64,000 nucleotides of DNA from Polyangiaceae bacterium (GTDB taxonomy: Bacteria > Myxococcota_A > Polyangia > Polyangiales > Houyiibacteriaceae): contig JALVDI010000386.1 in assembly GCA_027009115.1 (NCBI GenBank), forward strand, positions 6,700-70,699, read 5' to 3'. The notes below the pieces were generated by a model. It saw nothing but the letters and a program-made list of their open reading frames with translations, was not told the DNA's origin and searched no databases. Shown here one piece after another: positions 1-25,743 of the stretch. Made by a program: the position numbers and the translations under genes. Position 1 is the first letter of the stretch; every line of letters begins with the position of its first letter.

Positions 1-442
1 CCACCCCGGACTTGATCGAGAGGGCGTCGCGGTTGTCGTCCATGAAGACCCGCGCCAGCCAGAGGGGCACCTCGCCGGCGCGCTCGTGGATCTCCTTGGG
101 CACCGTCGCCGAAAGCACGCCGTACACGGTGAAGGGGTCCATCCCGTCAAGGGCCTGGTCGAGCGTGTCGCCCTTGCCGGCGAACTTGACGATGATCCGG
201 CCACCGCTCGCCTTGAACTCGAGCTGCGCCGTCGCGACGTACCAGCGCTCGGTCGCCTCATCCGCGACGCCCCGGTCCCACGGGCCCCGCGTGTACAGGG
301 CAGCCTGCACGCTGTCCAGCTTCAGCGGGAAGTCGTGCCGCGCCATGGCCGCGACCACGCGGCGGGTCCCCTCCATCTGGAGCGGGGTCTTCAGCACCAC
401 CACGTCCTGCCGCTTCTCCCACATGCCGTTTTCGACCTTCAT
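1..442 (-). CDS. Hypothetical protein, N-terminal part only (gene continues past left edge)
   Basis: My own minus-strand translation from ATG 440-442 (MKVENGMWEKRQDVVVLKTPLQMEG...) stays open to position 1. GGAGAGG lies just upstream, and there is an ATGA overlap with gene 439..753. The ORF is absent from the track because it is truncated. No domain recognised. Confidence 0.45.
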   Translation of the reverse strand, partial: MKVENGMWEKRQDVVVLKTPLQMEGTRRVVAAMARHDFPLKLDSVQAALYTRGPWDRGVADEATERWYVATAQLEFKASGGRIIVKFAGKGDTLDQALDGMDPFTVYGVLSATVPKEIHERAGEVPLWLARVFMDDNRDALSIKSGV

Positions 443-753
443 ACCTCTCCCCCTTTCACCCAGCGCTGCAACCGCTCGGCGGCGCGCTCGATGTTGCTTC
501 GCCCCACGGGGTTCGCGGAGTGGCTTACGATCCGGGGCAGCTCGCGCAGGTCATGGGCGACCACGTAGCGCTCGAGCCAGTTGATGAAGTCGTAGCCGGT
601 CTCCCCTTCCCCGAGGTCGTGGTCGAGGCTGATCTCCTCTACCCCCTCGAGGCCGTGGCCCTCCACCCACGCCCGGAGCTCCGCGGCGGTACGGAACAAC
701 CGGTATCCCGGGGGTGGTGTGCGCAGGTCATCGAGGAACAGCCGTAGACTCAT
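439..753 (-). CDS. cREC-like receiver-type domain protein
   Basis: Track ORF 439..819 trimmed to ATG 751-753 (MSLRLFLDD...), which has a GGGAGA SD. Motifs LFLDDxRxPP, SLDHDLG, TGYDFxxWL and SHSxNPxG fit the phage-associated cyclic-phosphate-processing receiver family as I remember it. Confidence 0.55.
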   Translation of the reverse strand: MSLRLFLDDLRTPPPGYRLFRTAAELRAWVEGHGLEGVEEISLDHDLGEGETGYDFINWLERYVVAHDLRELPRIVSHSANPVGRSNIERAAERLQRWVKGGEV

Positions 754-775
754 CGTGTCTCCCTTCTGCGCGTCC

Positions 776-805
776 ATTATACCGGACAGACGGGAAATCA
801 TGCAA
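776..805 (-). promoter_or_regulatory. Sigma-70-type promoter for the 753->1 genes
   Basis: The minus strand reads TTGCAT (800-805), 18 nt, TATAAT (776-781). The spacer ends in CCGTCTGTCCGG, a motif shared with other promoters in the window. Confidence 0.5.
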
Positions 806-925
806 GCATTTTGCGGCACCTTCCCCTTACCGGGTGTTGGCCGCGCCGGTTTTAGGGGGCATACAATCGGTGGGTCTGTACGTGCCGATGTACACGGCCT
901 GCATCCGTGCTAACATGAGGCATGC

Positions 926-945
926 GCGATAATGTCTATTATCGC
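926..945. promoter_or_regulatory. Perfect palindrome GCGATAAT-gtct-ATTATCGC upstream of the recombinase gene
   Basis: 8-bp arms at 926-933 and 938-945 with a 4-bp spacer, in the intergenic region between divergent genes. This is a candidate operator or recombination core. GCGATAAT recurs in a second palindrome at 27139-27153. Confidence 0.4.
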
Positions 946-1012
946 TTCGTACACCAGGCTCCGGCCCCGGGTTTTCTCGCTCTCCTTCCACCTTGGCCCC
1001 TAGGGTGGTCAC

Positions 1013-1972
1013 ATGGCTAGAGGCGGTTACCGCGGCGAGGCGTTTCCATGGGGGGCGGTCAAGCCCGAGCGGCGAGCTGAGAAGGTGCGCGCGATGCTCG
1101 AGGCCGGCGACCGGGCCGGCCTGTGGGCCCTGGTCAAGCACCACCTCATGACCTGGGGGCGTGCGGGCGCGGCGACGAGCCCCCACACCCTGCGCACCTA
1201 CCGCACCGGGCTGAACAGCTTCCTCGACTACCTGGCCGAGCTCGGGCTCGAGGGGGAGCTGCTGGCCGAGGCGGTCCTCGATCCGTCGGAGGACCTGGGG
1301 GCTGAGTACCTGCGCCACCTGCAGCGTCACCACGCCCCCGCCACCGTGAACAACCGCCGGGCGGCGGCGCGGGCCTTCTACCGGGCGCTGCAATGGGCCC
1401 GGGCCACGCAGACCAACCCCTTCGACCTGGCCCCGACCGTGCGGGACCCGACGCCGCGCCACGAGAAGCGCCGCCCCTACGAGGACGACGAAATCAAGCG
1501 GTTGACCCGAGAAGCGGACCCGCACGAGCGGGTCATGGTGCTGCTCGGGGCCCAGGGCGGGCTGCGCATCTCGGAGGCGGCGCGGCTTCGCTGGGACGAC
1601 GTGGACCTCGGGGCGAAGCGGATCACGATCCGGGACGGCAAGGGAGGGAAGACGGCGAGCGTCCTCATCCCCAAGGGGCTGCGCGCCGCGCTCCGCGCCC
1701 TTCGCAAGGCCGAACCCGAGGGCGAGTACGTGCTGCCCTGGCGTACGCCTGCGAGCATCCGGCGCCGGCTCAAAGCGCTGTGCGACCGGGCCGGCGTACG
1801 CTACAAGGGCTACCACGCCCTGCGGCACTACTGCGGCACCTACATCTACCAGCAGACGGGCGACCTGAACACGGCCGCCCGCCAGCTGCGGCACTCCCAG
1901 CTGCAGACGACCGCGATCTACGCAAAGTGGGCTGAGGAGATGGCGCGCGAGCTCCTGGACGGCTGGGACTAG
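1013..1972 (+). CDS. int: Tyrosine recombinase / integrase (XerC/D-Cre-like)
   Basis: 319 aa. The N-terminal SAM-like core-binding region is followed by a catalytic domain with LLGAQGGLRISEAARLRWDD (Arg I), HALRHYCGTY (H-x-x-R) and the C-terminal TTAIYAKW tyrosine. Confidence 0.9.
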   Translation: MARGGYRGEAFPWGAVKPERRAEKVRAMLEAGDRAGLWALVKHHLMTWGRAGAATSPHTLRTYRTGLNSFLDYLAELGLEGELLAEAVLDPSEDLGAEYLRHLQRHHAPATVNNRRAAARAFYRALQWARATQTNPFDLAPTVRDPTPRHEKRRPYEDDEIKRLTREADPHERVMVLLGAQGGLRISEAARLRWDDVDLGAKRITIRDGKGGKTASVLIPKGLRAALRALRKAEPEGEYVLPWRTPASIRRRLKALCDRAGVRYKGYHALRHYCGTYIYQQTGDLNTAARQLRHSQLQTTAIYAKWAEEMARELLDGWD

Positions 1973-1990
1973 GCCCGGCCACAAGGGAGC

Positions 1991-2015
1991 GGGCCGCCCC
2001 GCGGGGCGGCCCTTT
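1991..2015. terminator. Bidirectional intrinsic terminator between convergent genes
   Basis: GGGCCGCCC-cgcg-GGGCGGCCC forms a 9-bp GC stem followed by TTT. It sits between the int stop (1972) and the stop of 2037..2249. Confidence 0.6.
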
Positions 2016-2036
2016 GCGCAAGAACACCGTCGGCGT

Positions 2037-2249
2037 TCACGAGAAGGCGTCGAAGCTCTTGGCGTAGCGGTAGGGGTCGTCGAGCGGCGTGTTGCTCGAC
2101 ACGTACGAGACACCGAAGCCCTTGGTGACCGGGTACTTCTTGAGCAGGCGGCTGCGCACCGTCTTGCGGTCGCCGTTGACGGGCACCACGGCCACCTTGG
2201 AACCGTCCGAGGCCCGGGTCACCACGTAGTAGTCGTAGCTCTTGCTCAT
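2037..2249 (-). CDS. Hypothetical small protein (70 aa)
   Basis: ATG preceded by a GAGGGGG SD. Ordinary amino-acid composition (MSKSYDYYVVTRASDGSK...). Last gene of the leftward train. Confidence 0.55.
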   Translation of the reverse strand: MSKSYDYYVVTRASDGSKVAVVPVNGDRKTVRSRLLKKYPVTKGFGVSYVSSNTPLDDPYRYAKSFDAFS

Positions 2250-2305
2250 CTCGTACCCCCTCTCTGCATGTCCAGTATACCAGACACCGGCCCCGTCCGC
2301 AAGCG

Positions 2306-3106
2306 TCAGTTCTGCAGCTTGTGGGCGGGGAACTCGAGCCCGTACTTCTTGACCCGCGGCGGGGCCTTGGGGAAGTCGGGGCCGATCTTGCCGCCGTTGG
2401 CGTGGAGGTGGTCGCTGACCTGCTTCATGTACGCCACGCCCTCACGCTTGACGGCCTCGCGCTCGTGCGCGGGCACCAGCTTCCGCAGGTTGTCGTCCTT
2501 GTAGAAGTTGTCGTGGGCGTGGTCGGCCCAGACGTTCTGCCAGGGGTGCCGCAGCTGCACCTCGAGCCGCTGCCCCTTGTGCCCGATGCCGTTGAAGTGC
2601 ACCGAGCGGTAGCCGTCGCGCGAGCCGTCGTGCACCTCGTGCTCCAGCACCTTGAGGTGGGGGTGGGGGTTGTCCATCAGGCTCTTGAGGCGGCGGTGGG
2701 CCTCCTCGAAGTGGGCCGGGTCGTGCACGGTCACGCGCAGGCCCACGGTATCGCCCAGGCGGTTGAAGTGGCGCGGCTGCTTGCCCGGGCGCCCCATCTT
2801 CTCCGCGACCTTGTACGGCTCCTTGATGCGGCCGCCGATCTGCACGTTCAGCCCCTGCAGCACCTTTTCCAGGTGCGCCTTGGCGCGGTCGTGGGCCTCT
2901 TCGGCGATCGGATGCAGGTGCTCGGAGATGTGCTGCTGGACTTCCGGCGCGGTGTGCGGCACCCAGCGGCGCCCGCTGGGGGTCTTCACCCGCACCATCA
3001 TCCGGCCGCTGGGAAGCACGCGCATGGCGCTCGCGCCCTGGGCCTTGGCGAGGAGCGAGAGGGCCAGCTCGACGAGCGAAAAGGAAGACGCTAGGGTGCG
3101 ATCCAT
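2306..3106 (-). CDS. RelA/SpoT-domain protein (small alarmone synthetase / toxSAS-like nucleotide pyrophosphokinase)
   Basis: 266 aa. The ordered motifs RIKEPYKVAEKM, LGDTVGLRVTV, DGYRSVHFN and LEVQLRHPWQNVWADHAHDNFYK match the RSH synthetase-domain signature (RxKxxxSxxxK, DxxGxR, GYRSxH, EhQhRTxxQxxWAxxxHxxxYK). Confidence 0.7.
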   Translation of the reverse strand: MDRTLASSFSLVELALSLLAKAQGASAMRVLPSGRMMVRVKTPSGRRWVPHTAPEVQQHISEHLHPIAEEAHDRAKAHLEKVLQGLNVQIGGRIKEPYKVAEKMGRPGKQPRHFNRLGDTVGLRVTVHDPAHFEEAHRRLKSLMDNPHPHLKVLEHEVHDGSRDGYRSVHFNGIGHKGQRLEVQLRHPWQNVWADHAHDNFYKDDNLRKLVPAHEREAVKREGVAYMKQVSDHLHANGGKIGPDFPKAPPRVKKYGLEFPAHKLQN

Positions 3107-3138
3107 GGCCGCACCCTAGCGTCGGGGACGGTGGGTCG

Positions 3139-3504
3139 TTACGCTCCGACGGCGTTGGCCGGCCCCATGTCGGGGTCGTAGAGCACGTAACCCTCGCCGG
3201 ACGGCCAGTAGCTGTGCCCCTGGTAACGCTCGCCCCAGAGCGTCTTCTGCTCGGCGTGGTGCAGCGCGGCCAGGAAGAGCGACCACTCGTCGGGGTAGAG
3301 CTGTTCGAGCCGGGCCACGGTCTCCGGCTCGTCGTGGGGGTGGGGGAGATGCACCGACGGCAGCGTCTCCGCGTCCGTTTCCCGGCGCAGCCAGCGCTTC
3401 AGCGGCCACCAGTACATGCCGTAGGCCTTGTAGCTGCCAGGATCCCGCTGGAGCAGCTGCACCACCCCGCTCAGGGCTTCACGGTCCACCTTGCGCTTGC
3501 TCAT
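3139..3504 (-). CDS. Hypothetical protein (121 aa)
   Basis: ATGA overlap with the stop of the giant gene at 3501-3504. Trp/Tyr-rich, non-degenerate sequence. No domain recognised. Confidence 0.6.
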   Translation of the reverse strand: MSKRKVDREALSGVVQLLQRDPGSYKAYGMYWWPLKRWLRRETDAETLPSVHLPHPHDEPETVARLEQLYPDEWSLFLAALHHAEQKTLWGERYQGHSYWPSGEGYVLYDPDMGPANAVGA

Positions 3505-6500
3505 CGCGTCCTCCCCGTCATTTTATGGTAAAGCTCCACGAGCGAGGCCTTCACCAGGTACTCGGCCTGCTCGGGGCGCGGTATCGCGCGCCAATGCCGC
3601 TTGCCCAGCACCCGCTCGGCGTAGAAGGGCAGCGCACCGAGGGCGTCGTAGCCCAGGTCGCGCTCGCCGTGGTGTTTCCGCCACAGCTCGATGTCCTCGG
3701 GGGTGTTGGTGAGCAGCCGCTCGCCCTCTTCAAGCGGGATGCCGGGCTTGGCGTACGAGGCGGTGCGGTGCTCGGGGACGCCCTCGCGGTTGACGACCCA
3801 GGCCCCGATGCCGCCCCGGTCCTGCTTGGCCCACTCCTTGAGCGCTTCCTGGATCCGGTCGTGGTGCCGGCGCACCACGTCGGGGTGCACCTTCTGCAAG
3901 CCGGTGACGCCCACGTGCCGCAGCCGCTGCGCCAGCTCCTGCCCCAGGGTTTCGTCGTCCACCCGCGGGCGCGCGAAGATGTTGCCCAGCTCGGCCACGT
4001 CCTCGATCTTGTAGCTCGAGGGCTTGGGCTCGGAGCCGTAGCGCTGCAGCGGCACCAGCGGGGCGATCTGCATCGTCTTGGTGACGGGGCTGACCGAGAG
4101 GATGCGGAAGTGCCGCACGCCGCCGTCCTTGGTGTGCTGCTCGATGTGGCCGCCCTCCACGAAGACCTGGCCCGACGGGGCGATCACGAAGGGACGGCCC
4201 TCGCGGATCGCGTCCAGCTGGTCCTTGCTCACCTGCTCGTTGCGCTCGAGGTCGGACATGCGCGCCCGCCACTCGCCCTCGAGGCGCTTGAGCTTGCGGC
4301 TGCGCTCCTCCAGGCGCCGGTTCCACACGGCCACCTTCTCGGGGCTCCCCTCGGCGTGCGCCTTCTCCAGGTTGGCCTGCGCCTGAGCGACCAGGCCGCG
4401 CTGCTTCTGGACGGAGTGGTGCAGGATGCTCGCCTGCTGCAGCTTCTGGACGGTGGCCTGCCACGCGGCGGCCTTGGCCTCCTCGAGGCGCTTTTTCTTC
4501 TGCTTCTCCAGGATCGCCCGCACGTCGTCGGGGTTGTCGGCCGTCTGCATGAGCATCTGGGTGTAGGGGTCGTTCTCCGGGTCCATGGCGTCGGCGTTGC
4601 GGGCGCGCTCCTCGGTGCTGTTCCACAGGATGTCGGTCCAGCCCTTCTTACCGAGCATGGTGCCGTAGGTCATGGCGTCCACGGAGCCGCGCGCCAGCAG
4701 CACGTGGTTGCGCACCTTCTCCTGGGTGTTGCCCTGCCGTACGGCGCGGCCCAGGCGCTGCCAGTAGGTGCCCGGGTCCCAGGGGATGTCCAGGTGCACC
4801 ATGTCGGTCGTGCCCGTCTGCAGGTTGAACCCCTCGCCGATGACCCCGGTGGAGCCGATGACCACGCGGATCTTGCCGGCCTTGTAGGCGGCCTCGATGT
4901 CGGCGCGGGCGGCCGAGCTCTTGGCCGTCTTCGAGGTGACGACGGCGATCTGGTCTTCGGGCACGCCCGCCTCGATGAGGTGCTGCTTAAGCCGGGCGTA
5001 GGCGTTGGTGCGGCTCTCCTCGAGGTGCTTGGCGACCAGCTTCCGCAGCTTGGCGGTGGTCATGCCCTCATGGGGGAGCTTGTTGCGCTTGGCGTACTCG
5101 CGCAGGGCGTCCTCGCCCATGTCCTCGGCGGGGTTCTCGTCCATGGACGACTGCCCCAGGTCCATGAACATGACCACCTTCCCGCCCTCGCTGAGCGCCT
5201 GTTTGGCGATCTCGCCCGCCTTCTGGAAGCGCGGGTTGGGCAGGTGCCCCAGGCGCTCGGGGTCGTAGACCGCGGGGTCGAGGGTGAGGAAACGCATGCG
5301 CGCCAGGTAGGAGAAGAAGTGCTCGTCGCCTTCGGCTTCGCGGTTGGCCGCGGCGTGCTGGGCGGCGGCGGCCAGGGCGCGGTACTCCGTGTGCTGCTCG
5401 GGGTGCATCTCGAAGATGTGCTCGTGGTCCTCGCGCTCGGGGATCTTGAGACCCACCTCCTGCGCGGTGCGCCGGAAGATGTAGCGGTTCATCAGTCCCC
5501 GAAGCTCCCCCAGGTTCTTGAACCCGAGGACGGCGGTCCGCACCTCCACGCCGCCGGGCGTGGCCACCAGGGCATTGCCGATGTCCGTGTAGCGGCTGAT
5601 GAACGCCTCCGGGGTGGGCGCGATGCGGTCTACGGCGTCGGTGACGTAGCGCAGCATGTTGTAGACCTCGAGCGGCGAGTTTTTGGTCGGGGTGGCCGTG
5701 AGGGCGTAGATCCCGCTGCCGTCGTTGTGGTCGCGCACGTGCCGCGCCTTGATCAGCATGTCGAGCGCGCGCTGCGACTCCGAGCCGGCCCCCAAAAACT
5801 TCGGCGACTCGCCGAAGACCCGCGGCGCCGCATGCAGGTTCTTGTAGGCGTGGTGCTCGTCCGAGATGAGCGCGTCCACGCCCAGGTCCTCCCAATGCAC
5901 CGCCCGCACCTGGTCGCCGAAGAGCTTGGCCGTGGCCTTCTCCATGGCCTGCTGCATCTTGCCCACCCAGTCGCGCTCGCTGCGCTTCTTGCGCTTGTCG
6001 TGCTGCGCCTCCTCGAACTCGCGGGCGCGCACCACGTCGTCCTTGACGTAGCGCTCGAGGGTTTCGGGCCGTACCGGGATGGCACCGAACTTGTCGCGGG
6101 TGATGAGCACGCGGGTGATGCTGGGGTCCGCGGCGAGGCGCGCGAGCTTGGTGGCCACGTCCTTCATTTTGTCCTCGCGCCAGACCTTCTTCTTGGGATC
6201 AAAGGTCTCGCCGATGACCATCACGTGGTCCCCGGGGACGCCCCGGGCCACGTCCGCCCGGGACAGGGCGCGCAGCGCCGCGCGGAAGCGCTCGGGCTCG
6301 AGCCCGCTGGCCTTCTCGGCGTCGTTCAGGTTGATGAGGTCGCGCTCCTTGAGCAGATCGTAGACCTTCTGCGCGTCCGCGGCGGTCTGCTCGTCGGTGC
6401 CCTCGGGGACGGCGAACTCGCCCGTGATGTACCAGCGGCCGCTACCGAGCTCGGCGTAGCTGTTGCGCCAGTTGCCCATCAGGCTCTTGGGCATGACGTG

Positions 6501-9500
6501 CATGACCCGCTTGGCCCGGCCTTCGTGCTCGAGGAGCTGGGCTAGCGCGAGGCCGGCGTACGTCTTCCCGAGACCCACGTCGAGGGCCATGATCGAGTTG
6601 CCGGTGTCGAGGGCGTGCCGCACCGCCTCCGTCTGGAAGTCATGCAGCGGCGGACCCTTCCAGTCGGGGATGTCCAGCGCCTCGTTGCTGTACTTGGGCG
6701 GGATGTAGCTGTTGTAGGTGCGGTTGTAGCCCTCTTCGAGCTCTTCGCGGTAGTCGGAGCTGGCCGCCCACGCCTTGAACTGGTCGGCCCACTCCTGCTC
6801 CTGCTTGCGGGCCTCCTCGCGGTACTGCGCCTTGAGCGCGTCCAGCTCGGCGCGGGTCATGGTCCTCGTCTGCTCGGCCGTGAGGCGCCGCACCGGGGTG
6901 TCGAAGTTGAGGTACTTGACGAACTCCTTGACGTGGTCGGGGAGACTGTAGCCCTCGGCGTGCTCCACGATGAAGATGCCGGTGTCCGTACGCCGCACAT
7001 TGTACTGGCCGCCCGGGTCCACGACCTCGCCGATGAAGTCGCGCACCACCTCCGGGCGCACGTAGTGGTCGCGGGCCGTGATCTCGACCTCCTCGAGGGG
7101 CTTGCGGGGCAGCTTCTCGCGGAACTTCTTGGCCTGGGCCCGCAGGATCTCGCGTTCGGTGTTCGAGAGGCCCGGGGCCTCGGCGGCCCGCTCCAGCGCC
7201 TCGGAGCGCTCGTACACGTCCCCGACGTAGAACTCGTCGTCGGGAATCCAGCGCCCCGACTCGTCCATGGCGTAGCCGTTCTCGGCCAGCCACTCCATGG
7301 CCTGCGTGGTGCCCCAGCCTTTCCCCGCCAGCACCGAGGCCAAGCGGGTGGGGGTGAGGCGCCGCTGCCGCGCAAGGTGCGCCGCGACGGCGTAGGGGTC
7401 GGTGTAGTCCACCCCCTCGCCGCGCTCGCCCGTGACCGGGTTGAGCAGGTGCTCGGCCACGTCGCCCTTGGGCGTGACGGCGCTGAGCAGGTGGGCGAGG
7501 CTGTGCCGGCGTTTGAGCTCGCCGGCCAAGTGTTGGTGGGGGTTGCCGTACTCCTCCAGGTAGCGCTTCAGGGACTCGACCACCGCCTTACGGCGCGCCT
7601 CGGCGTCGGCCGGGCTGCCGTTGTTGAGCACGTGCACGTACTCGCGCAGCTCGTCGGCGATGCTGACCGCGGCCGCGAGGCGCGGGTCCTCGCCCTGGAT
7701 CGTGTGCCAGCGCCCGTTGCGGAAGACCAGGCGGCCGTCCTCGCTGACCGTCCCCTCCTCGACGCGGCCGCGCTCGAGGTTCGAGGCCGCGCTCGTGGCC
7801 CAGTCGCGGGCCGATGCGTACTCGTCCCCGTAGTGGCGCTCCAGCGCCGCCATGTCCGCCGGCTGTTCGTCGGTGGGGGCCTGGGCCAGGCGCTCGAGCA
7901 GCCCGGGCTCGAGCTCGCCCTCGATCTTCTTGTAGCCGTGGTACGTGGTCTCGCCGCTCCACGTCCCGAAGAGGTGGTCGTCGCGCAGGTGCAGCTTGCC
8001 GTCCAGGAAGTCGCGCGCGGCGTCCGTGAGCACGCCCGCCTTCTCCAGGGCCTCCTCGCCGTGGCGCTGCACCAGGCGCAGGAGGGTCATCCCCTCATCG
8101 TCCGGGCGCTTGCGCACCACCAGCACCACCGGGGGCACCCCCGAGTTGGACTCCTTGAAGACGCTGGAGGGGAGCTGGTAGGCCCCCAGGACCTCCGCCC
8201 GGGCCAAGAGGCGCCGGCGGAAGTCGCGGGTCGAGGGGTTCTCGACGGGTCCCGGGTTGATCAGGTGCACGCCCACGCCGCCGTCCTTGAGGCGGTCCAG
8301 GGAGGCGTCAATGAAATACTGCTCGGCCTTGGCGAGCCACGGCTTGCCCTTGCCGATCAGGCTGCCGCGGATGCCGTAGGGCGGGTTGGCGATCACCGCG
8401 TCGTAGGTGTGCTCCTGCCCTTCGCCCTGGTTGTACTCCTCGAAGGACAGGCCGGGGTAGACCTTGTGCCCCCGGGGCTCGTGCAGCAGCTTGCCGATCT
8501 TGCCCGATACCTCGGAGAGCTCGACGCCGGTCACGCGGGTGCCGTCGGGGGCGGTGTGCAGGAAGACGCCGTTGCCCATCGAGGGCTCGAGCGCGGTCTT
8601 GGGCTGGCCGGCCACGCGGTGCAGCAGGGCCCACATGGCGGCCGCCAGCGGCGCCGGGGTGTAGTGGGCGTTCAGGTCGCCCGTCAGGCCGCCCTCGCCG
8701 GTGTAGGCGGCCAGGACCTGGCGCTCCTCCTCGGTGGGCTCGCGCTTCTCGTCTTCCAGGCGCTCCAGCAGCTCCACGGCGCGCGCGTTGGCCTTGGTGC
8801 GCTGGGCAACCGTGGCCTTGGGCAGCAGCGCGAACCCGAACCGGGGAATACGCTTCAGGATCTCGCGCAGGGGGCGCGCGTAGTTGAGTCCGCGGCCTTC
8901 GGCTTCGGCCTGGGGCGGCTCCTCGGCGGCCGGCTCGGCCTCGGCCTCGGGCTCGGTCTCGGTCGGCTTGGCCTCGGGTTCGGGCTCCGGCTCGGCCTGG
9001 GGTTCGGCCGCTCCGGCTTCCGCCTCGGGCGCGGTCGGCTTGGCCTCGGGTTCGGGCTCCGAGGTGGCCTGGGGCTCGGGTTCGGTTTCCTGCCGGGGCG
9101 CGCTCGGGGCGCTTTCGGGTTCCTCGTCCACGCGGTGCCAGCGCCCGCCCTTGAGGCGGTACGTGTGGGCCCCGTCGGCGAAGACGACCGTCTTCTCGGC
9201 ACCCTCCCGCAGGTGCTGATCGGAAGGGTCGGCCGGCAGCTCCGCGGGGGCCGGTCCCGCGGTGTCGGGCACCGACGGCTCCACCTGCGGCGCGTTCTTG
9301 CCCTCCCAGCGCTCGCGCGGCACTTCATGGTAGAAGTGGTCGGTCAGGTTCTGGGCGAAGACCCGGGCGAACTGGGGGTCGCGTCCCCGCAGCTCGTAGC
9401 CGCGGATCGGGTCGTGCGTCGCCGTCTCCTCCAGCTCGAGGGCGCCGTCGGGAGCCACCTTGTACACCAGCTCGCCGTCGAGGTAGATGTCGCTCATTGG

Positions 9501-10523
9501 GTCGTCGGGGTCGGCGTGGCGGTAGTGGGTGAGGTACAGCCGCGGCGCGCCGTCCCGCCCCGGGTGGCGCTCGATGACCAGCGGCAGGAAGGGCGGGTTG
9601 GGGATGCGCAGGTGGTAGTCGCCGTCCTCGTCCCCCTCGCGCAGGACGTGCTCACGCAGGCCGGCCCGCTCCAGGAACTCCGCCACCGCCTTGGCGTCGG
9701 CGCTCTTCTGGCGGTCGGCGGGGGCGACGGCCGGCCCCGCGTCCTGTTCGGGCTCGGCCGGCTTGGGCGGCTCCAGCTCCCCGCGGCTGGCCAGGCGGGC
9801 CGCGGCCTCGACCTTCTTGGCGAGGGCGCCCGCCGTCTTGATCAGGTTCTCCGAGCCGTGGTCCACCCGTCCCCCGGCGTCGTAGGCGAAGCTGCTCGCG
9901 GCGTACAGGTCCTTCATCGCCGCCTGCAGCTTCACCAGCATGCGCTGCAGGCGCGACAACGGGTCGTTCCCGCGGGGCAGCTTGCGCGGGCGCAGCTTCT
10001 TGCGCTCCCACTTGGGGGCCGCGTTGGAGTCGAAAACGCGCTCCACCTCGCGCTCGAGCTCGTCCAGGGCGGCCTCGGGATCGCGGCGCAGGGTCGCTTC
10101 CCAGTCGTCCGGCGCCGGCCGCTCTTCGGGTTTGGCCTCGGGTTTGGCCTCGGTCTCGGTCGGCTTGGCCTCGGCCTCGGGCTTGGGGGCGGCGGCCTGC
10201 GGCTTCGGCTTCTGCGCGGCCTCCGCCTCGCCGTCCGCCTTCTCCCAGTACGTCTGCGTGTGAACCTTGCCGCTCTTCTCGCGCACCACCTTTTTGACCG
10301 GCTTGAGGTGCGCCTTGTCGTGCCGGCGGTCGAAGAGCGACGGCTGCTCGGGCTGGCGGCCCTGCCCGTCGAAGAGTGCGGGCTGGTCGGGGGGCGGCGC
10401 CTTGCGCCGGCGCGTCCCCGCAGAGCGCCGCGTGCGGCGCGCGGACCGGCTGGGGGCTGGAGGGAGGTTGAAGAGGGCCTGGGCCTGGGCTTTGATGAGG
10501 TCGTAAATCTCGCGTAGGGTCAT
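3501..10523 (-). CDS. Giant (2340 aa) N6-adenine DNA methyltransferase + SNF2-family helicase fusion (P1 DarB-like)
   Basis: Methyltransferase motifs: EPSMGNGVF (motif I) and AVIANPPYG (motif IV; NPPY at nt 8376-8387). Helicase motifs: ALDVGLGKT (nt 6561-6581), SDEHHAYKN, LTATPTKNSP, and FNLQ...HLDIPWDPGTYWQRLGRAVRQGN. The N-terminal third carries PEAKPTETE low-complexity linkers. The long C-terminal part looks coiled-coil. Confidence 0.9.
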   Translation of the reverse strand: MTLREIYDLIKAQAQALFNLPPAPSRSARRTRRSAGTRRRKAPPPDQPALFDGQGRQPEQPSLFDRRHDKAHLKPVKKVVREKSGKVHTQTYWEKADGEAEAAQKPKPQAAAPKPEAEAKPTETEAKPEAKPEERPAPDDWEATLRRDPEAALDELEREVERVFDSNAAPKWERKKLRPRKLPRGNDPLSRLQRMLVKLQAAMKDLYAASSFAYDAGGRVDHGSENLIKTAGALAKKVEAAARLASRGELEPPKPAEPEQDAGPAVAPADRQKSADAKAVAEFLERAGLREHVLREGDEDGDYHLRIPNPPFLPLVIERHPGRDGAPRLYLTHYRHADPDDPMSDIYLDGELVYKVAPDGALELEETATHDPIRGYELRGRDPQFARVFAQNLTDHFYHEVPRERWEGKNAPQVEPSVPDTAGPAPAELPADPSDQHLREGAEKTVVFADGAHTYRLKGGRWHRVDEEPESAPSAPRQETEPEPQATSEPEPEAKPTAPEAEAGAAEPQAEPEPEPEAKPTETEPEAEAEPAAEEPPQAEAEGRGLNYARPLREILKRIPRFGFALLPKATVAQRTKANARAVELLERLEDEKREPTEEERQVLAAYTGEGGLTGDLNAHYTPAPLAAAMWALLHRVAGQPKTALEPSMGNGVFLHTAPDGTRVTGVELSEVSGKIGKLLHEPRGHKVYPGLSFEEYNQGEGQEHTYDAVIANPPYGIRGSLIGKGKPWLAKAEQYFIDASLDRLKDGGVGVHLINPGPVENPSTRDFRRRLLARAEVLGAYQLPSSVFKESNSGVPPVVLVVRKRPDDEGMTLLRLVQRHGEEALEKAGVLTDAARDFLDGKLHLRDDHLFGTWSGETTYHGYKKIEGELEPGLLERLAQAPTDEQPADMAALERHYGDEYASARDWATSAASNLERGRVEEGTVSEDGRLVFRNGRWHTIQGEDPRLAAAVSIADELREYVHVLNNGSPADAEARRKAVVESLKRYLEEYGNPHQHLAGELKRRHSLAHLLSAVTPKGDVAEHLLNPVTGERGEGVDYTDPYAVAAHLARQRRLTPTRLASVLAGKGWGTTQAMEWLAENGYAMDESGRWIPDDEFYVGDVYERSEALERAAEAPGLSNTEREILRAQAKKFREKLPRKPLEEVEITARDHYVRPEVVRDFIGEVVDPGGQYNVRRTDTGIFIVEHAEGYSLPDHVKEFVKYLNFDTPVRRLTAEQTRTMTRAELDALKAQYREEARKQEQEWADQFKAWAASSDYREELEEGYNRTYNSYIPPKYSNEALDIPDWKGPPLHDFQTEAVRHALDTGNSIMALDVGLGKTYAGLALAQLLEHEGRAKRVMHVMPKSLMGNWRNSYAELGSGRWYITGEFAVPEGTDEQTAADAQKVYDLLKERDLINLNDAEKASGLEPERFRAALRALSRADVARGVPGDHVMVIGETFDPKKKVWREDKMKDVATKLARLAADPSITRVLITRDKFGAIPVRPETLERYVKDDVVRAREFEEAQHDKRKKRSERDWVGKMQQAMEKATAKLFGDQVRAVHWEDLGVDALISDEHHAYKNLHAAPRVFGESPKFLGAGSESQRALDMLIKARHVRDHNDGSGIYALTATPTKNSPLEVYNMLRYVTDAVDRIAPTPEAFISRYTDIGNALVATPGGVEVRTAVLGFKNLGELRGLMNRYIFRRTAQEVGLKIPEREDHEHIFEMHPEQHTEYRALAAAAQHAAANREAEGDEHFFSYLARMRFLTLDPAVYDPERLGHLPNPRFQKAGEIAKQALSEGGKVVMFMDLGQSSMDENPAEDMGEDALREYAKRNKLPHEGMTTAKLRKLVAKHLEESRTNAYARLKQHLIEAGVPEDQIAVVTSKTAKSSAARADIEAAYKAGKIRVVIGSTGVIGEGFNLQTGTTDMVHLDIPWDPGTYWQRLGRAVRQGNTQEKVRNHVLLARGSVDAMTYGTMLGKKGWTDILWNSTEERARNADAMDPENDPYTQMLMQTADNPDDVRAILEKQKKKRLEEAKAAAWQATVQKLQQASILHHSVQKQRGLVAQAQANLEKAHAEGSPEKVAVWNRRLEERSRKLKRLEGEWRARMSDLERNEQVSKDQLDAIREGRPFVIAPSGQVFVEGGHIEQHTKDGGVRHFRILSVSPVTKTMQIAPLVPLQRYGSEPKPSSYKIEDVAELGNIFARPRVDDETLGQELAQRLRHVGVTGLQKVHPDVVRRHHDRIQEALKEWAKQDRGGIGAWVVNREGVPEHRTASYAKPGIPLEEGERLLTNTPEDIELWRKHHGERDLGYDALGALPFYAERVLGKRHWRAIPRPEQAEYLVKASLVELYHKMTGRTR
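8953..8978. repeat. 26-nt exact repeat (second copy 10149..10174) inside Pro/Glu/Ala/Lys low-complexity linkers of the giant gene
   Basis: ctcggtctcggtcggcttggcctcgg occurs at both positions. It encodes EAKPTETE within two PEAKP-rich linker regions (about nt 8884-9110 and 10110-10229). Confidence 0.7.
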
Positions 10524-10753
10524 TCGGTCGCCTCCACCGCGCGGGCCGTCCCGCGCTCGAGCACGTGGCTCAGGTACTCGTCTTCCAGCGCGCTTCCCCG
10601 CGGGGCGCGGATGCCGTCGGCGGCCGCGCGGGCGGCCTCCTCGTGGCGCTCGGCCACGCGACGGGCGGCACCGCGCGCTGCGGCCTCCTCCACGTGGGCG
10701 CGCGCGATCTCGGCGCTGATCTCGGCCAGCAAGCGCTTGGCGTCGTCCTTCAT
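10520..10753 (-). CDS. Hypothetical small helical protein (77 aa) between the two giant genes
   Basis: Track ORF trimmed to ATG 10751-10753 (MKDDAKRLLAEISAE...), which has an AAGGTG SD 7 nt upstream. ATGA overlap with the giant gene start at 10520-10523. Confidence 0.55.
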   Translation of the reverse strand: MKDDAKRLLAEISAEIARAHVEEAAARGAARRVAERHEEAARAAADGIRAPRGSALEDEYLSHVLERGTARAVEATE

Positions 10754-10785
10754 GGTGCGCACCTTATCCGCCGTGGTGGTCAGTC

Positions 10786-13700
10786 CTACCCGAAAAGCGT
10801 TCCCTGCTGCGCCGCGGGGTTCGGCGCCGGCGGGGGCGGGGGCGTTGGATCGTCGTCGTCGTCGCGCTCAGGGCGGGACAGGCCGGCCAGCTGCAGCTGC
10901 AGCGCGAGGCCGGTGTCGTCCATGTGTTCGTACGGCCCCTGGAAGATCTGCCCCAGGAGGCGCTTGCGCTCGAGGCGTTCCAGGTTGGCGCGGTCGTGGT
11001 CGGTGTCCGTCATGAGGGTGTGGATCTCGATCGCCTTCTTCTGCCCGAGGCGGTCAATCCGCGCCGAGCGCTGCTCCCACGTCTTGTGCGTCATGGGCAG
11101 GTCGTAGTGCACCAGCCACTCGCCGCGGTGCTGCAGGTTCGCGCCGGTCGCGCCGGCGTCGGAGGCGACGATGATGTCCACCTCGCCGCGGTCGAAGCGC
11201 TGGCGGATGCGCGCCTTGTCCTGGGCGCTGTGCCCCCCGTGCAGGACGGCGACCTTGTGCCCGGCCCGCTCGAGGGCGGCGGCGATCTCGGCCACCGCCT
11301 TGCGGTTGTGGGCGAAGACCACGCCGCCCTTCCCGCGCCGCTGCTCCGCGAGCGAGAGCAGGTGCTGGATCTTGGCGTTGCGGTCGGCGGGGGCCTCGTT
11401 GATCACGCGCGCCTTCGCGGCCTCATGCAGCACCCCGAGGCTGCGGTTGAGTTTCTGGGCGACCTGCTCGTGCTGGGCCTCGGGGACGCCCTCGAAGCTG
11501 CGGGGCGAAAGGGCCCGCAAGGCCTCCAGGTCCACGTCGCCGCGGTCGCGGGCGCGCACGGCGCGCTGGTAGGCGGCGCGCACCTCTTCCAGCTGCGCCC
11601 GCTGCTCCGGGTGCAGCGGGATCGGGGCGTGCCCGCTGGGGGTGTCGCCGCGGGTGCCGTCCGCGCCCCAGACGACGCGCTTGGTCGTCCCCGAGGGCAC
11701 CACGTCGTGGTAGACGTAGCGGTCGGCCAGCCGCTTCAGCGCCTCACGTGCGGTCAGCGCGTCCACGCCGTAGCGGCGCCGGAACTCGGCCGCGTCGCCG
11801 AAGCGCTTGGGGTCGAGCTTCTTGAGCCAGTCGCCGATCTCGGAGGCGTCGTTCTTGACCGGGCTCCCGGTCATCAGGGTGCCGTACGGCGACAGGCTCA
11901 TCGCGGTGTCGAGCACGGCCGTGAGCAGCGACTCCGCCTTGCCCTGGCGGTTCAGGGCGTCGTGGGCCTCGTCCACGGCGACGTAATGCAGGGGGATCCC
12001 GTGGGCCTCCAGGGCCTCACGCATGAGGCGCTGGCGCTCCGGCAGGTCGGCCTCGAGGAAGCGGTCCTTGAACGCCTCGAGGTCCTCCCCGTGGTGCTCC
12101 GCCATCAGCTTGAGCATGTCGTCGCGGAAGGCCTGGTGGGTAACGGCCACCATGTGCACGTCGGGGGTGGCGTAGGCGGCCCGGCGCTCTTCGTGCGTGG
12201 CCTCGCGCGCGTGCCAGCGGAAGCGGCCGGGCTCGAGCACCCGGGCCATCTCCTCGCCGAACTGGTCGCGCACGATCGAGGGCACCACGAACAGGCCCTT
12301 CTTGGCCTCGCCGCGGTGGTGGAGCTCGGTGAAGGCCCCGATCGCCACCGAGGTCTTGCCGCTCCCCGTCCCCAGGAAGGCGGCGAGCTTGCGGCCTTCG
12401 ATAATGGCCTTTATCGCCCGCTGCTGCTTCACGTACTTGGTGCCCTTGCCCATGGTCACGGGGTACATCTGCACCGGGCTCATGCCCGCGTGGACGCTGC
12501 CGGCAACCTCCGGCATGAGGGCCGCCAGCCGCTTCTCGACGGCGGGGGGCAGGGCGTGCCGCTCGAGGTGCGGCACCGGGGCCTCGGGCTCGACCGCCTC
12601 GTCGCCGGCGTTGGCGAAGAGGCTGGCCTGCGCCATGCGCGCGGCGCGCTCTTCCTCCTTCTTCTTGCGCCACGCCTCGAGCAGCGACCCCTTCCCGCCC
12701 ATGTACGCGAAGCGGCCGCCCTGACGCTCCCGCAGGCTGTGCTGCTGGCGGGCGATCTCGTCCTTGAAGCGGCGGTACCCCTCGGGGTCGCGCACCGCCC
12801 ACAGGTGCTCGCCCCAGCGGTTCGCCTCCTTCGACAGGCGTAGGGGCTGGCCGGTGAGCTTGGCGTGGTAGTGGGCGTAACGGCTCGCCAGCGACCCCCT
12901 CATGTGCTCCTGCACCGCCTCGTAGGCGCGCTGCGGCCCGCCGATGCCCTCCACGAACTTGTTCCACTCGACGAGCTCCGCCTGGTCGCCCAGCGCTTCG
13001 GTGGCCACCCGCTGGCGGTCGCGGTGCCACTTCACCCAGTCCGGGTTCAAGGGGAGGTCGCTCGCCAGCCGGTCGGGGTAGGGGTTGCCCCGCAGGTTGG
13101 CCTTGCCGTCCTCGGTGAGGGTCACGCTGCCGTCGTCGTTTTCCACGTAGTCGCCGCGGCCCAGCCCCATCGCGCGCAAAGTCTCGGCGCGGAGGTCGGG
13201 GTCGGCGGCCACATGGTCACGGAACCGCAGCGTGATGGGGGCGTCGGGGTCTACGGGGGCCGGCTCTCCGAAGAGGCCGCCGTCCTGGGGCGCGCCCCAC
13301 TTCTCCGGCATGGGGTGCTTGGCCTCGTACTCGGCCAGGGCCTTGCGCACCGCGTTCTTGCGCGCGGCCAGCTCCTCGGGGCTCTTGCCCAGGATCTCGG
13401 TCAGGTAGTAGTGCCGCAGCGCACGCTGGTCGCGGTGGTCGAGCTCGCCCAGGGGCTTGAGGGCCACCTGCGTGCGCGGATCGGCGAGCACGCTCAGGTA
13501 GAGGGCCTTGCGGACCTCCGGGGTGTCGCCCACCGTCTGGCCGTAGAAGTCGGCCTCCCCGGGGTGCTCGCGCTCCACGAAGTCACGGGCCAGGCCGCGC
13601 AGCCGCTCATGGAGCTCGGGGTGCTTCTCCTGCAGGCGGTCGTAGTCCACCGGGATCGGTACCCGGTACTCCTCGCCCTTGCGGTTCTTGCGCACCTCCT

Positions 13701-16861: not shown

Positions 16862-17227
16862 TCACGCCAGCGGCCGCCTCGGATCGCGCCCCCCGGCCGA
16901 TTCGGCCAGCGCCTCCGCCATCATCCCGGCGGTTTTCAGCAGCATCGAGGCGAACCGCAGCGCCTTAACCCGCGTCTCATCGCACGGGTCGTCACCCCCG
17001 AGCTCGTCCGCGGCGTCCAAGAACGCTGCGGAGGCGCGCGTGTAGGCTTCGGCCGCCCCGCGCATGAAGATCTCCAGCGTGCCAAGGTGGTCGCCCAGAA
17101 CAACGCCGGCGGGCACGAGCTCAGCGGCCACGTCCACCAGCTTCTCGGCGACCTCCTGCTCCATGCCACCGTGCTTGAGAATGTTGACGAGCGACGCCTT
17201 GCTTGCGCTCCCCTGTTCGGTCGTCAC
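16862..17227 (-). CDS. Hypothetical protein (121 aa)
   Basis: ATGA overlap with upstream gene 17224..18237. Acidic, helical composition. Confidence 0.55.
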   Translation of the reverse strand: MTTEQGSASKASLVNILKHGGMEQEVAEKLVDVAAELVPAGVVLGDHLGTLEIFMRGAAEAYTRASAAFLDAADELGGDDPCDETRVKALRFASMLLKTAGMMAEALAESAGGRDPRRPLA

Positions 17228-18237
17228 GCCACCACCTCCTCAGCCTCCGGGTACTCCTCGTACAGCCGCCCGTCCAGTTCCCGGCCGGCCGCCCTGCGAC
17301 CGACGCGCGACATGACGACCGGGCGGTCGAGGTCGGCCGTCCCCCCGAGCTCCACCGGGACAACCTGACCGTCCACGTCGAGCAGGAAGGGCGTCCGCGA
17401 GGGTGCCTCCCCCGGGGCGAACTCGCCCCATTGCTTGAAGAAGAAGGCGGCGCCGTACCGGTGCGCCTGGGTGCGCAGGGACCGCACCCAGGCCGGATGC
17501 ATGGGGCGCGCGCCGCGGCCGGTCTCGCCCCCCACGATCACCCAGCTCACCCGTCCCGGGAGCTGCTGGCCCGGGCGGTCCAGTCGCTCCCCGGTCAGCA
17601 CGTTGTACAGACCGCCCCCGTCCCGGTCGTCGGCCTGCACGTGGTCCAGCCACAGGCTGCCCAGCAACGGCTCGGCGCTGACGAACCGCACGAGCGGCAC
17701 CGGGCTGCGGATGCTGGCCAGGTCGAGGGCCCGCTGCGCGAACTCCTGCCGCCCCACCGACACGCCGAACCAGATTGAGGCGGCCCCAATCGGCGCGACG
17801 CGGTGCTCCAGGAACTCGTCGAACCAGGTCTCCAGGATGTCCCGCATGCGCCTGGACCGCTTGGTCAGCACCATGAAGCGGTGCGGCTTCTGACCGGCGT
17901 GGACGCGGTTCGCGTTAACCTGCTCCATAGTGTTCAGGATCCGCAGGATGGTGCGCGCGGGCAGGTCCTCATGGAAGAGGTCGCCCATCGAGCAGCAAAA
18001 CACGGCCCGGGGCGCGCGCCACCGCGCGGGGACGCTCAGGCGGTCCTCCAGGAACTGCACTTCGGTAAACGGGCGGCCGTACTGCGCCGGGGCCCCCCTC
18101 CACTCCCCCCGCTTCCAGGCGCGGTGCCGCTTCGTATGCAGGCGCTCGGCGTAGCAATGCTTGCACTCGGTGCTGACCTTGGTGCAGCCCACCACGGGGT
18201 TCCAGGTCTCCTCCGCCCATTCGATCTTCGTTGGCAT
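17224..18237 (-). CDS. Phage Gp37/Gp68 family protein (DUF5131)
   Basis: The N-terminus MPTKIEWAEETWNPVVGCTKVSTECKHCYAE is the hallmark IxWxxxTWNPxxGCxxxSxGCxxCYA signature of this family. 337 aa. Confidence 0.8.
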   Translation of the reverse strand: MPTKIEWAEETWNPVVGCTKVSTECKHCYAERLHTKRHRAWKRGEWRGAPAQYGRPFTEVQFLEDRLSVPARWRAPRAVFCCSMGDLFHEDLPARTILRILNTMEQVNANRVHAGQKPHRFMVLTKRSRRMRDILETWFDEFLEHRVAPIGAASIWFGVSVGRQEFAQRALDLASIRSPVPLVRFVSAEPLLGSLWLDHVQADDRDGGGLYNVLTGERLDRPGQQLPGRVSWVIVGGETGRGARPMHPAWVRSLRTQAHRYGAAFFFKQWGEFAPGEAPSRTPFLLDVDGQVVPVELGGTADLDRPVVMSRVGRRAAGRELDGRLYEEYPEAEEVVA

Positions 18238-23303: not shown

Positions 23304-23878
23304 GCCTCTCCCCCATCGGGCACCCGCACCAGGCGGCCCTTGCGGGCGATCTCGACCAGCGTGCGCAGCTCCCGGCTCCGTGCCTCCGGCAGCGGCTCGC
23401 CCATGACGACGCGCCCTCGGAGCCTCCCCTCACGCGCCAGTCGGACGAAGGTCTCGGCGGGGATGCGGGTCATCCCCCCGTAGTAGCTCCGGGGGATGTG
23501 GGCGAGGTAGGCGGCCTTTGCCTCCCGTGCCGATCGGAACCCCAGCATTACCTTGTCCTCGTCGTGCTCCCCGGTGTCGGGCCGGACCTGGTGCACCACG
23601 TAGACGTAGCGCGCGTTCTCGTAGGGGCCTACGTACACGTCGAGGTGATCCGGCCGCTTCTTGCCCGGCTCGCGGTCCACGCCTTCCGTGCCGCGGATGT
23701 AGCCGTAGTCGTAGCGCATGAGGGTCTTGCCCTCACGCCCGTTTTCGTCGCGCCACGGGCGGTACTGCCCCTTCTTGGCCTCGATGCTGATCTCCAGCCC
23801 GCGCCAGCGGCGCCGGCCGGCGAGTGGGTACCCCGTCGCGTGCGCCTTGGCGAGACGCACCACCAGACGCGGCATCAT
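23300..23878 (-). CDS. Hypothetical protein with inorganic-pyrophosphatase-like motif
   Basis: 192 aa, between portal and MuF, with ATGA-type overlaps on both sides. YDYGYIRGTEGVDRE...DHLDVYVGP resembles the family-I PPase core NYGFIPxTxxxDGDPxDVLV. Confidence 0.55.
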   Translation of the reverse strand: MMPRLVVRLAKAHATGYPLAGRRRWRGLEISIEAKKGQYRPWRDENGREGKTLMRYDYGYIRGTEGVDREPGKKRPDHLDVYVGPYENARYVYVVHQVRPDTGEHDEDKVMLGFRSAREAKAAYLAHIPRSYYGGMTRIPAETFVRLAREGRLRGRVVMGEPLPEARSRELRTLVEIARKGRLVRVPDGGEA

Positions 23879-25713: not shown

Positions 25714-25743
25714 ACCGGACACCCTAGGTGCTGCGGCCGTCGG

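Follow-up and report, generated by a model that had tools for sequence, protein, structure and literature searches.

A stand-alone RelA/SpoT-type synthetase gene with a conserved small partner in phage DNA related to the Thermus Lalka phages, a candidate effector and immunity pair

Enzymes of the RelA/SpoT homologue (RSH) family that are carried by phages are known in two guises, as toxic small alarmone synthetases (toxSAS) and as C-terminal toxin domains of head proteins. Phage-borne toxSAS toxin-antitoxin pairs have been described (PMC7229694), and RelA/SpoT domains are recognised as modules both of polyvalent proteins of the phage type and of MuF toxins, where they are predicted to be packaged and injected (PMC5512222, PMC5576092); solo versions of polyvalent-protein domains are also predicted to exist (PMC5512222). 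Small immunity open reading frames (ORFs) follow 89% of the MuF toxin genes (PMC5576092). The Apk2 toxins, which make (p)ppApp and carry GxN in motif syn3 and YH in motif syn4, are neutralised by IapK and by the hydrolase Aph1, and the syn3 and syn4 motifs do not by themselves set specificity (PMC12226406). In phage P1, DarB and Ulx are packaged in the virion (PMC11437467). Phage RSH toxins, their immunity genes and RSH modules within virion proteins are already established. Here we analyse a 64,000-nt stretch of contig JALVDI010000386.1 (hereafter the window), in which a stand-alone RSH gene is followed by a putative 70-aa partner gene and adjoins genes coding for DarB-like and Ulx-like proteins (Table 1). 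What the locus adds is a rare RSH clade of thermophile phages lying outside the characterised subfamilies, a solo RSH architecture in linkage with DarB/Ulx, a previously undescribed family of partner proteins expressed from a separate promoter, and an RSH start codon masked by a hairpin.

The reading that we favour, with a probability of about 0.5, is that of a late-expressed, probably virion-delivered RSH effector encoded together with its cognate immunity protein, in a split arrangement analogous to MuF-Apk2/IapK. The enzyme itself is readily recognised. Residues 92-205 match RelA_SpoT (PF04607) with an E-value of 8.2e-15 and 55.5 bits (Pfam cut-off 27) over profile positions 1-111 of 113, which is far above chance. 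RelA_SpoT is the sole Pfam match; no HD, TGS or ACT domain is present in the protein, whose 266 aa are too short for them, and in NCBIfam the synthetase region of long RelA/SpoT proteins was matched only in part and below threshold. All of the ordered synthetase motifs occur (R-x-K...K, D-x-x-G-x-R, G-Y-x-S-x-H, E-x-Q-x-R and H...Y-K). A first-pass annotation of this DNA, made from the sequence alone, had described a full ordered synthetase signature in a protein devoid of hydrolase, TGS and ACT regions, and both statements hold, the four motifs that it quoted being found in the translation in that order. The GC content at third codon positions (GC3) reaches 0.96 in the RSH gene, 0.91 in the 121-aa ORF upstream and 0.96 in the 70-aa ORF downstream, with low second-position GC in a window of 69-70% GC, a strong coding signature for all three ORFs. 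A start of the RSH protein at M28 rather than M1 was considered and rejected, as residues 12-27 are conserved at the protein level in the clade member P0002.

The active site is intact. In an alignment of 16 sequences, made up of the window clade and more distant RSH homologues, the residues R93, K95, K103, D119, G122, R124, Y166, R167, H170, E182, Q184, H198, Y202 and K203 are invariant. They include the ATP-binding residues (R93, K95 and K103) and the catalytic D119 and E182, within a framework of D-x-x-G-x-R, GYRSVH, E-x-Q and H198...Y202-K203. Moreover, the ratio of nonsynonymous to synonymous substitution rates (dN/dS) is 0.10 with respect to the 87% identical orthologue in the related contig L015. 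The stand-alone synthetase domain reported in the first-pass annotation is thus borne out, with catalytic residues that are not degenerate.

The AlphaFold2 model of the enzyme is confident (predicted local distance difference test, pLDDT, 89.2; predicted template modelling score, pTM, 0.82). In it, an N-terminal helix and a sheet of three strands (residues 11-50) precede a long helix (54-82) and the core (88-202), and a conserved helical tail (205-265) forms the C-terminus. In a Foldseek search, RelQ/SAS1 (5dec), CapRel (7ztb), which is a tRNA pyrophosphokinase, and RelP/SAS2 (6ewz) were matched equally (E about 1e-8, probability 1.00). Among viral proteins, matches to the fold include polyvalent proteins of the DdrB-like and ART-PolyVal kinds and one protein that is Tas1-like. 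A sequence profile of the RSH compared with the PDB found the (p)ppGpp synthetases RelP, RelQ and Thermus Rel as best matches, RelP and RelQ with E-values of 1e-5 to 1e-3. FaRel2 was marginal (E 0.014 over 54 residues, 170-223), and CapRel and Tas1 were not detected at E <= 10. Membership in one of the named toxSAS subfamilies finds no support in this profile search, nor in a tblastn search of 50,697 phage records, which gave no mycobacteriophage PhRel-type match. The protein is strongly basic (isoelectric point, pI, 9.9; net charge +13.5), and its syn3 GYRSVH (SxH) and syn4 EVQLRH (LR) are of the guanosine/RSH type. Taken from motifs and model, the protein looks like a catalytically competent 3'-pyrophosphokinase of the small-alarmone-synthetase (SAS) type, for which the candidate acceptors are GTP/GDP, ATP/ADP or tRNA-CCA.

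The second element that carries our reading is the 70-aa ORF, which begins 56 nt 3' of the RSH gene. A homologue of this small ORF lies directly downstream of the RSH gene in every relative that has sequence there, over paired lineages in which RSH identity to the window falls from 87% to about 25%. It codes for 71 aa in L015 (RSH 87% identical), 70 aa in L009 (RSH near-identical), 67 aa in L001 (60%), 69 aa in L002 (40%), where it overlaps the RSH stop codon, and 80 aa in the outgroup contigs L012-14; in L017 (41%) it is present with the KYP motif, and in L003 (43%) it is partial, at the contig end. The L008 contig stops after a ribosome-binding site and start codon at the position of the small ORF, leaving no ORF to compare. 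The first-pass annotation had named the absence of conserved neighbours in relatives as an argument against its proposal; the small ORF is instead kept wherever downstream sequence is available. Pairwise similarities between the small proteins are modest (E 4e-12 to 5e-4), and position, length and residue pattern are consistent, with G26, K38-Y39-P40 and P55 invariant. AlphaFold2 predicts a beta-beta-alpha-beta unit (pLDDT 84). The small protein belongs to no Pfam, NCBIfam, PHROG or PADLOC family, and a profile search built on it retrieved only the sequences from which it had been built. In the fold search, the antitoxins ATfaRel2 (E 1.7) and Dmd (E 0.85) were matched below significance, and these matches were not used as evidence.

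From this conservation, the 70-aa ORF, and not the 121-aa ORF, is the putative conserved partner of the RSH gene, with which it would form a two-gene cassette. A conserved small neighbour is what one would look for in a toxSAS or toxin-immunity pair. Its divergence from the L015 homologue (10857-11072) is marked, with 66% identity and a dN/dS of 0.98, a noisy value from a single short pairwise comparison, and the neighbours show 0.10 (RSH), 0.10 (Ulx) and 0.05 (recombinase) in the same pair of contigs. This pattern would fit an immunity, antitoxin or sensor protein that evolves fast. In the same comparison the synonymous divergence (dS) of the small ORF is 0.30 vs 0.62-0.84 in the neighbouring genes; together, the low dS and the dN/dS of about 0.98 suggest either fast protein evolution or a separate recombination history of this short segment.

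The two genes of the cassette appear to be expressed in different ways. The small ORF is preceded by a sigma-70-type promoter with a -35 element TTGCGG (2302..2297), a 17-nt spacer and a TG-extended -10 element TATACT (2279..2274), followed by a strong ribosome-binding site GGGGGT (2260..2255). Both hexamers are identical in L015, where the spacer has diverged, and -10 equivalents occupy the same place in L001 (TGcTATAAT), L017 (TGcTATACT), L003 (TATACT) and the outgroup L012 (cATACTGGAC). This TATACT is the sole -10-like element common to the window and L015 over 8.7 kb of the strand. A sigma-70 consensus scan at default stringency returned no promoter, the element having come from reading of the sequence and of the relatives. 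Because these promoter elements are conserved, the small ORF very likely constitutes its own transcription unit. For the RSH gene, neither the scan nor the comparison of the window with L015 over the same 8.7 kb revealed a promoter-like site.

At the RSH start, a hairpin holds the AUG (3106) within its 7-nt loop and a ribosome-binding-like AGGGUG in its 5' arm. It folds at -30.7 kcal/mol (z = -4.4), and none of 200 shuffled sequences folds as well. In L015 the pairing is preserved by a compensatory double substitution, from A:U to G:C, and one further pair has gone from G:C to G:U. An analogous but weaker structure occurs in L001, L002 forms a separate hairpin of 13 bp just 5' of the start codon, and no hairpin was found at the RSH start of L003 and L008. 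The structure looks like a terminator or attenuator that would also mask translation initiation. It might in addition couple to the termination of Ulx translation, which lies 16 nt upstream. The palindrome between the small ORF and the convergent recombinase gene is probably a bidirectional terminator, and L015 carries at this position a hairpin of another sequence, GGGCCGTCC-gtaa-GGACGGCCC. Rfam gave no credible match around the cassette. From this layout we infer that the RSH would be expressed by read-through from DarB/Ulx and translationally throttled, and that its partner would be made independently; such an asymmetry would be expected for a harmful enzyme and its neutraliser.

The genes upstream and downstream help to define the limits of the cassette. 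The 121-aa ORF is Ulx-like, with 44% identity to the Ulx-like protein of Lalka8 (E 3e-25), and the protein encoded next to it is 52% identical over 1472 aa to the Lalka8 'DarB-like anti-restriction protein'. In Lalka8, the DarB-like and Ulx-like genes are followed directly by a convergent integrase gene with no RSH between them, and in L003/L004 the ORF upstream of the RSH gene is unrelated to Ulx. Judging from these arrangements, the 121-aa ORF is the partner of the DarB-like protein and not of the RSH. A role as antitoxin was therefore rejected for it, as it is Ulx-like and occurs without RSH in Lalka phages. The earlier description of both flanking ORFs as unannotatable is right as to their existence and, for the 70-aa ORF, as to the lack of a family, and does not apply to the 121-aa ORF; likewise, its suggestion that one flanking ORF might be the partner is sustained for the downstream ORF, which co-varies with the RSH, and fails for the upstream one.

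The gene order of L015 reads helicase, 80-aa ORF, DarB-like, Ulx-like, RSH, small ORF, recombinase (on the opposite strand), cREC_REC, 211-aa ORF, prohead protease, scaffold-like protein and major capsid protein. In L002 the prohead protease gene follows the small ORF directly. At the left end of the window, the cREC_REC gene of L015 is found again (439-819), together with the beginning of the 211-aa ORF. Protease, scaffold and capsid genes thus follow the cassette in relatives, and the cassette therefore lies inside a late/head block and is not terminal. This differs from the first-pass annotation, which had placed the RSH gene at the end of the giant-protein operon; the start-codon hairpin, the promoter specific to the small ORF and the head genes that follow in relatives all disagree with that placement. 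Its report of an adjacent recombinase gene was accurate, and the gene is a convergent one of the Xer-like tyrosine type.

Table 1. Positions of the cassette, its regulatory elements and other features in the window.
Feature	Coordinates	Strand	Basis
RSH synthetase-only protein, 266 aa, ATG start, pI 9.9	2306..3106	-	Pfam, motifs, AlphaFold2
70-aa partner protein, candidate immunity/neutralising	2037..2249	-	conserved pairing, GC3 0.96
Sigma-70-type promoter of the small ORF	2274..2302	-	sequence reading and relatives
Hairpin, perfect 15 bp, GC-rich, then UUCCUUUUCG (U-rich)	3087..3123	-	terminator scan, RNA folding
GC-rich palindrome GGGCCGCCCCGCGGGGCGGCCC	1991..2012	.	between convergent small ORF and recombinase gene
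Ulx-like anti-restriction protein, 121 aa	3139..3504	-	phrog_1629, E 3.4e-9
DarB-like polyvalent protein, 2340 aa, N6-adenine methyltransferase and SNF2-type helicase	3501..10523	-	phrog_11801 E 3e-223, phrog_10089
Helicase, 1794 aa	10786..16170	-	
Xer/Cre-like tyrosine recombinase, convergent with the cassette	1013..1972	+	Pfam Phage_integrase and SAM-like N-terminal; NCBIfam XerA/XerC-like
MuF/gp7-like minor head protein	22281-23303		
Portal	23875-25722		
ParA-like partition protein	32128-32925	-	
Large terminase (TerL)	39696-41753		
Baseplate wedge	56697-57758		
Tape-measure protein with M23 peptidase domain	62318-63988		

Some further genes around the cassette deserve mention. The 1794-aa helicase is homologous to Lalka gp42, which sits within the tail/baseplate module of Lalka; here its gene lies directly 5' of the DarB-like gene, two giant genes having been brought together in the window lineage. 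Between the recombinase and prohead protease genes, a gene coding for cREC_REC ('cyclic-phosphate processing receiver', PF20274, E 6e-25; window 439-819 (-), L015 12337-12666) is followed by a conserved ORF of about 211 aa of unassigned function (window 2-~445 (-), L015 12642-13277). The pair is conserved in L015 and L009 and may represent an RNA-repair or counter-defence accessory.

That the locus is phage-borne, as the first-pass annotation had stated, is plain from the structural, packaging and other phage genes of the window, among them TerL, portal, MuF-like, baseplate and tape-measure genes as well as an exonuclease, a DnaC-like loader and a beta-clamp, and from the similarity to Lalka: at the nucleotide level, a portion of the 1794-aa helicase gene is 76% identical to the Thermus myophages Lalka8/27a/27b. 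The 90%-identity cluster of the RSH protein includes a hypothetical protein recorded from Oceanithermus sp., and its contigs measure 79-81 kb; the element is therefore probably a complete Lalka-like myophage or plasmid-prophage (~80 kb) of a Thermales host, Oceanithermus. Positions 1-12000 of the window had no megablast match among plasmids, and no tRNA gene that might provide an attachment site was found in the window. The ParA-like protein and the Xer/Cre-like recombinase, together with the lack of both a tRNA gene and a detectable attachment-site fragment in the window, suggest a P1-like plasmid-prophage lifestyle. In addition, a 337-aa protein encoded between the head genes and the giant helicase gene (17224-18237 (-)) gives a strong match to phrog_2045 (E 1e-82) and has a Cys-rich N-terminus (CxxxxxxCxxC). 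We presume that it resembles the Gp37/Gp68-type phage protein family.

The RSH clade appears to be rare and restricted to phages. Only five other clade proteins, P0002-P0005 and the L017 ORF, emerged from a word-indexed search of 5.8 billion clusters, from a metagenome scan and from 1.84 billion representatives scanned in full with a hidden Markov model (HMM). The viral and metagenome scans added just L015/L016 and L017, a scan of species-representative genomes found no relative, and tblastn against phage and plasmid collections gave remote matches alone (26-30% identity). No contig record encoding the exact RSH protein of the window was found.

More distant homologues place the RSH gene in a recognisable context. 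Second-tier homologues (E 1e-20 to 1e-8) have a C-terminal extension in common with the window RSH, and the two closest, P0012 and P0018, which also share a GLEFP..K(L/I) tail, are both encoded in head-assembly modules. The P0012 locus (L010) contains a portal-MuF fusion, RSH, a 79-aa ORF, an HD_4 small alarmone hydrolase, an S78 prohead protease and capsid, and the P0018 locus (L012-14) a Mu-type portal, RSH, the 80-aa ORF, an ART-PolyVal/MuF protein and protease. The L010 hydrolase gene lies at 11384-11848, in a layout that mirrors apk2-iapK-aph1; no hydrolase gene was found in the window. Other homologues carry RSH as a C-terminal domain on portal or portal-MuF proteins (P0014, P0098 and P0119), on InPase-containing polyvalent proteins (P0029, P0031 and P0050), on a 2H phosphoesterase protein (P0128) and on a SAM lyase protein (P0106).

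A motif PRDxxG(K/R)(F/W) is located N-terminal to the RSH domain in 17 of 153 proteins scanned, including P0008, P0011, P0012 and P0017. It recurs in many phage homologues of the second tier and among the portal fusions, and might serve as a linker or in processing or packaging. Its use as a shared packaging signal was rejected, the motif being absent from the window clade. Finally, P0006 and P0015 have tandem duplicated RSH-like domains, a hydrophobic N-terminal segment and a Cys-rich composition, with an additional C-terminal hydrophobic segment in P0006; a composition that looks AT-rich suggests that they do not come from phages and may be of eukaryotic or secreted origin.

In the favoured reading, the RSH gene would be transcribed solely on the late transcript that carries the helicase, DarB-like and Ulx-like genes, and its translation would be held low by the hairpin masking the ribosome-binding site and start codon. 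The enzyme would be loaded into the capsid like the homologues of the adjoining DarB and Ulx and would enter the next host with the DNA, where it would move pyrophosphate from ATP to a purine 3'-OH, either of GTP/GDP or ATP, yielding an alarmone, or of the CCA end of tRNA. Host growth or translation would thereby be blocked for a time. The small protein would be expressed from a promoter of its own, probably in lysogens too, and would neutralise the enzyme in producing and phage-carrying cells. An injected host-takeover enzyme had been among the suggestions of the first-pass annotation on account of the operon context, and the genomic setting fits a virion-delivered effector.

Several observations weigh against this reading. 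The RSH is fused neither to MuF nor to portal and lacks the PRDxxG(K/R)(F/W) motif. Its guanosine-type syn3 and syn4 motifs differ from those of Apk2, of which it is therefore no orthologue. The Lalka phages do without the cassette, so it is accessory, and a variable region beside a recombinase gene is a typical 'moron' site of lysogen-expressed defence genes. A terminator-like hairpin stands between Ulx and RSH, and a weak or non-consensus RSH promoter is possible. In addition, a PDB search with the small protein gave no significant fold match (best E 0.2), known immunity and antitoxin proteins included.

The main alternative, less probable, is that the cassette is a classical toxSAS toxin-antitoxin moron of a prophage or plasmid-prophage, both genes being expressed in the lysogen and the small protein acting as a labile or sensor antitoxin. 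Release of the RSH would then lead to abortive infection when another phage enters, or to the death of cells from which the plasmid-prophage has been lost. For P1, the addiction role is played by phd/doc, and the ParA-like gene of the window suggests a plasmid-prophage that could profit from such a module. The conserved pair of toxin and small ORF speaks for this arrangement, as does the fast-evolving partner, whose dN/dS of 0.98 recalls the hypervariable sensor or antitoxin parts of CapRel-type systems; however, a promoter-like element is seen at the small ORF only. The hairpin would insulate the cassette from the late operon, yet the RSH start codon that it contains would require transcription from the upstream late genes. 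Similarly, the variable position by the recombinase gene and the absence from Lalka would suit a moron, whereas the order RSH, small ORF, prohead protease and capsid is shared with outgroups, in which RSH lies between portal/MuF and protease. Phage-borne toxSAS pairs are known (PMC7229694), and the defence candidate PDC-S33 of PADLOC is matched weakly (E 5e-9); the RSH sequence, however, is no closer to characterised toxSAS than to housekeeping SAS, and the phage collection holds no match of the mycobacteriophage PhRel type.

It is unlikely that the gene codes for a non-toxic, unpackaged (p)ppGpp synthetase of the phage, expressed late or at a low level, which would redirect transcription and metabolism of the host or tilt the choice between lysis and lysogeny, with the small ORF as a regulator or an unrelated gene. 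Such an enzyme would agree with the syn3 GYRSVH and syn4 EVQLRH motifs, which follow the guanosine-type and not the Apk consensus (PMC12226406), and with RelP, RelQ and Thermus Rel as best profile matches among solved structures; the small alarmone hydrolase gene downstream in one outgroup also points to a nucleotide product. On the other hand, a dangerous enzyme would be expected to show just this strict pairing with a small protein under a separate promoter and this tight masking of translation, and the pI of 9.9, the charge of +13.5 and the affinity with virion-fused RSH domains fit an effector better.

In a quite improbable variant, the phage would deliver a Dar-type counter-defence package from its capsid, with the RSH as a third member that enters the cell together with DarB and Ulx. 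There the enzyme would transiently turn ATP/GTP into 3'-pyrophosphorylated nucleotides or pyrophosphorylate another 3'-OH substrate, so that NTP-dependent defences (type I/III restriction and other ATP-driven systems) would be starved or jammed during the time in which the entering DNA is methylated by DarB. The 70-aa protein, with its rapid evolution and separate transcription, would then act as an off-switch or immunity factor of a new kind. That the protein is decaying or dead as an enzyme and keeps the RSH fold for a structural or binding role, an idea considered solely for the extreme rarity of the clade and enjoying no specific support, is hardly credible given the invariant catalytic residues, the dN/dS of 0.10 and the confident fold.

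If the candidate effector and immunity pair is indeed what these data suggest, the locus would represent a compact and separable version of the known phage RSH systems, with a solo enzyme, a dedicated partner, a clear regulatory layout and adjacency to DarB/Ulx. Relatives of the window phage grow on the genetically tractable Thermus thermophilus, and the locus could reveal whether injection of enzymes of this kind takes place, which substrates they pyrophosphorylate and whether counter-defence benefits from them. It would also add a thermostable pair of RSH and inhibitor for biochemistry.

Among the described systems, MuF-Apk2/IapK/Aph1 (PMC5576092, PMC12226406) likewise has an RSH-fold enzyme in the head/packaging block of a temperate phage. 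The window RSH also has a small ORF immediately 3', within a head/packaging block as judged from relatives, and among its outgroups there are fusions of portal, MuF and RSH as well as one locus that combines RSH, small ORF and HD_4 hydrolase. Unlike this system, the window RSH is a separate single-domain gene, the MuF-like protein being encoded elsewhere, its syn3 and syn4 motifs are SxH and LR instead of GxN and YH, there is no hydrolase gene in the window, and the partner showed no detectable similarity to a known family (IapK was not compared directly).

The toxSAS FaRel, FaRel2, PhRel, PhRel2 and CapRel (PMC7229694, PMC11782079, PMC9712102) are similarly synthetase-only RSH enzymes with a small adjacent partner, borne by phages or prophages. 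The window model matches CapRel (7ztb) as well as RelQ, and its basic character would suit a tRNA-binding toxSAS. It differs in lacking subfamily-level sequence similarity (FaRel2, E 0.014 over 54 residues), in a partner that is not a zinc-finger, Panacea or hydrolase-type antitoxin, and in an apparent dependence on late-operon transcription. Housekeeping RelQ/SAS1 and RelP/SAS2 provide the best sequence-profile and fold matches and share the syn motifs, whereas identity is about 18-19%, and the window RSH stands apart by an additional beta-sheet at the N-terminus, its C-terminal tail, its very basic pI and its occurrence in a phage beside a partner ORF.

With the RelA/SpoT modules of polyvalent proteins (Iyer et al. 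2017, PMC5512222), the window RSH shares the vicinity of a DarB-like methyltransferase-helicase polyvalent protein, and its second-tier relatives are fused to InPase, RadC/JAB, 2H or SAM lyase domains. It is itself a single-domain protein with a dedicated small partner, whereas the neighbouring DarB-like protein does qualify as polyvalent. Finally, the P1 Dar system and its Lalka counterpart (PMC11437467) have the DarB-like and Ulx-like genes in the same order as found immediately 5' of the window RSH gene. RSH is no known component of Dar, however, and Lalka8 passes from ulx straight to integrase, at the place where the window phage carries its cassette.

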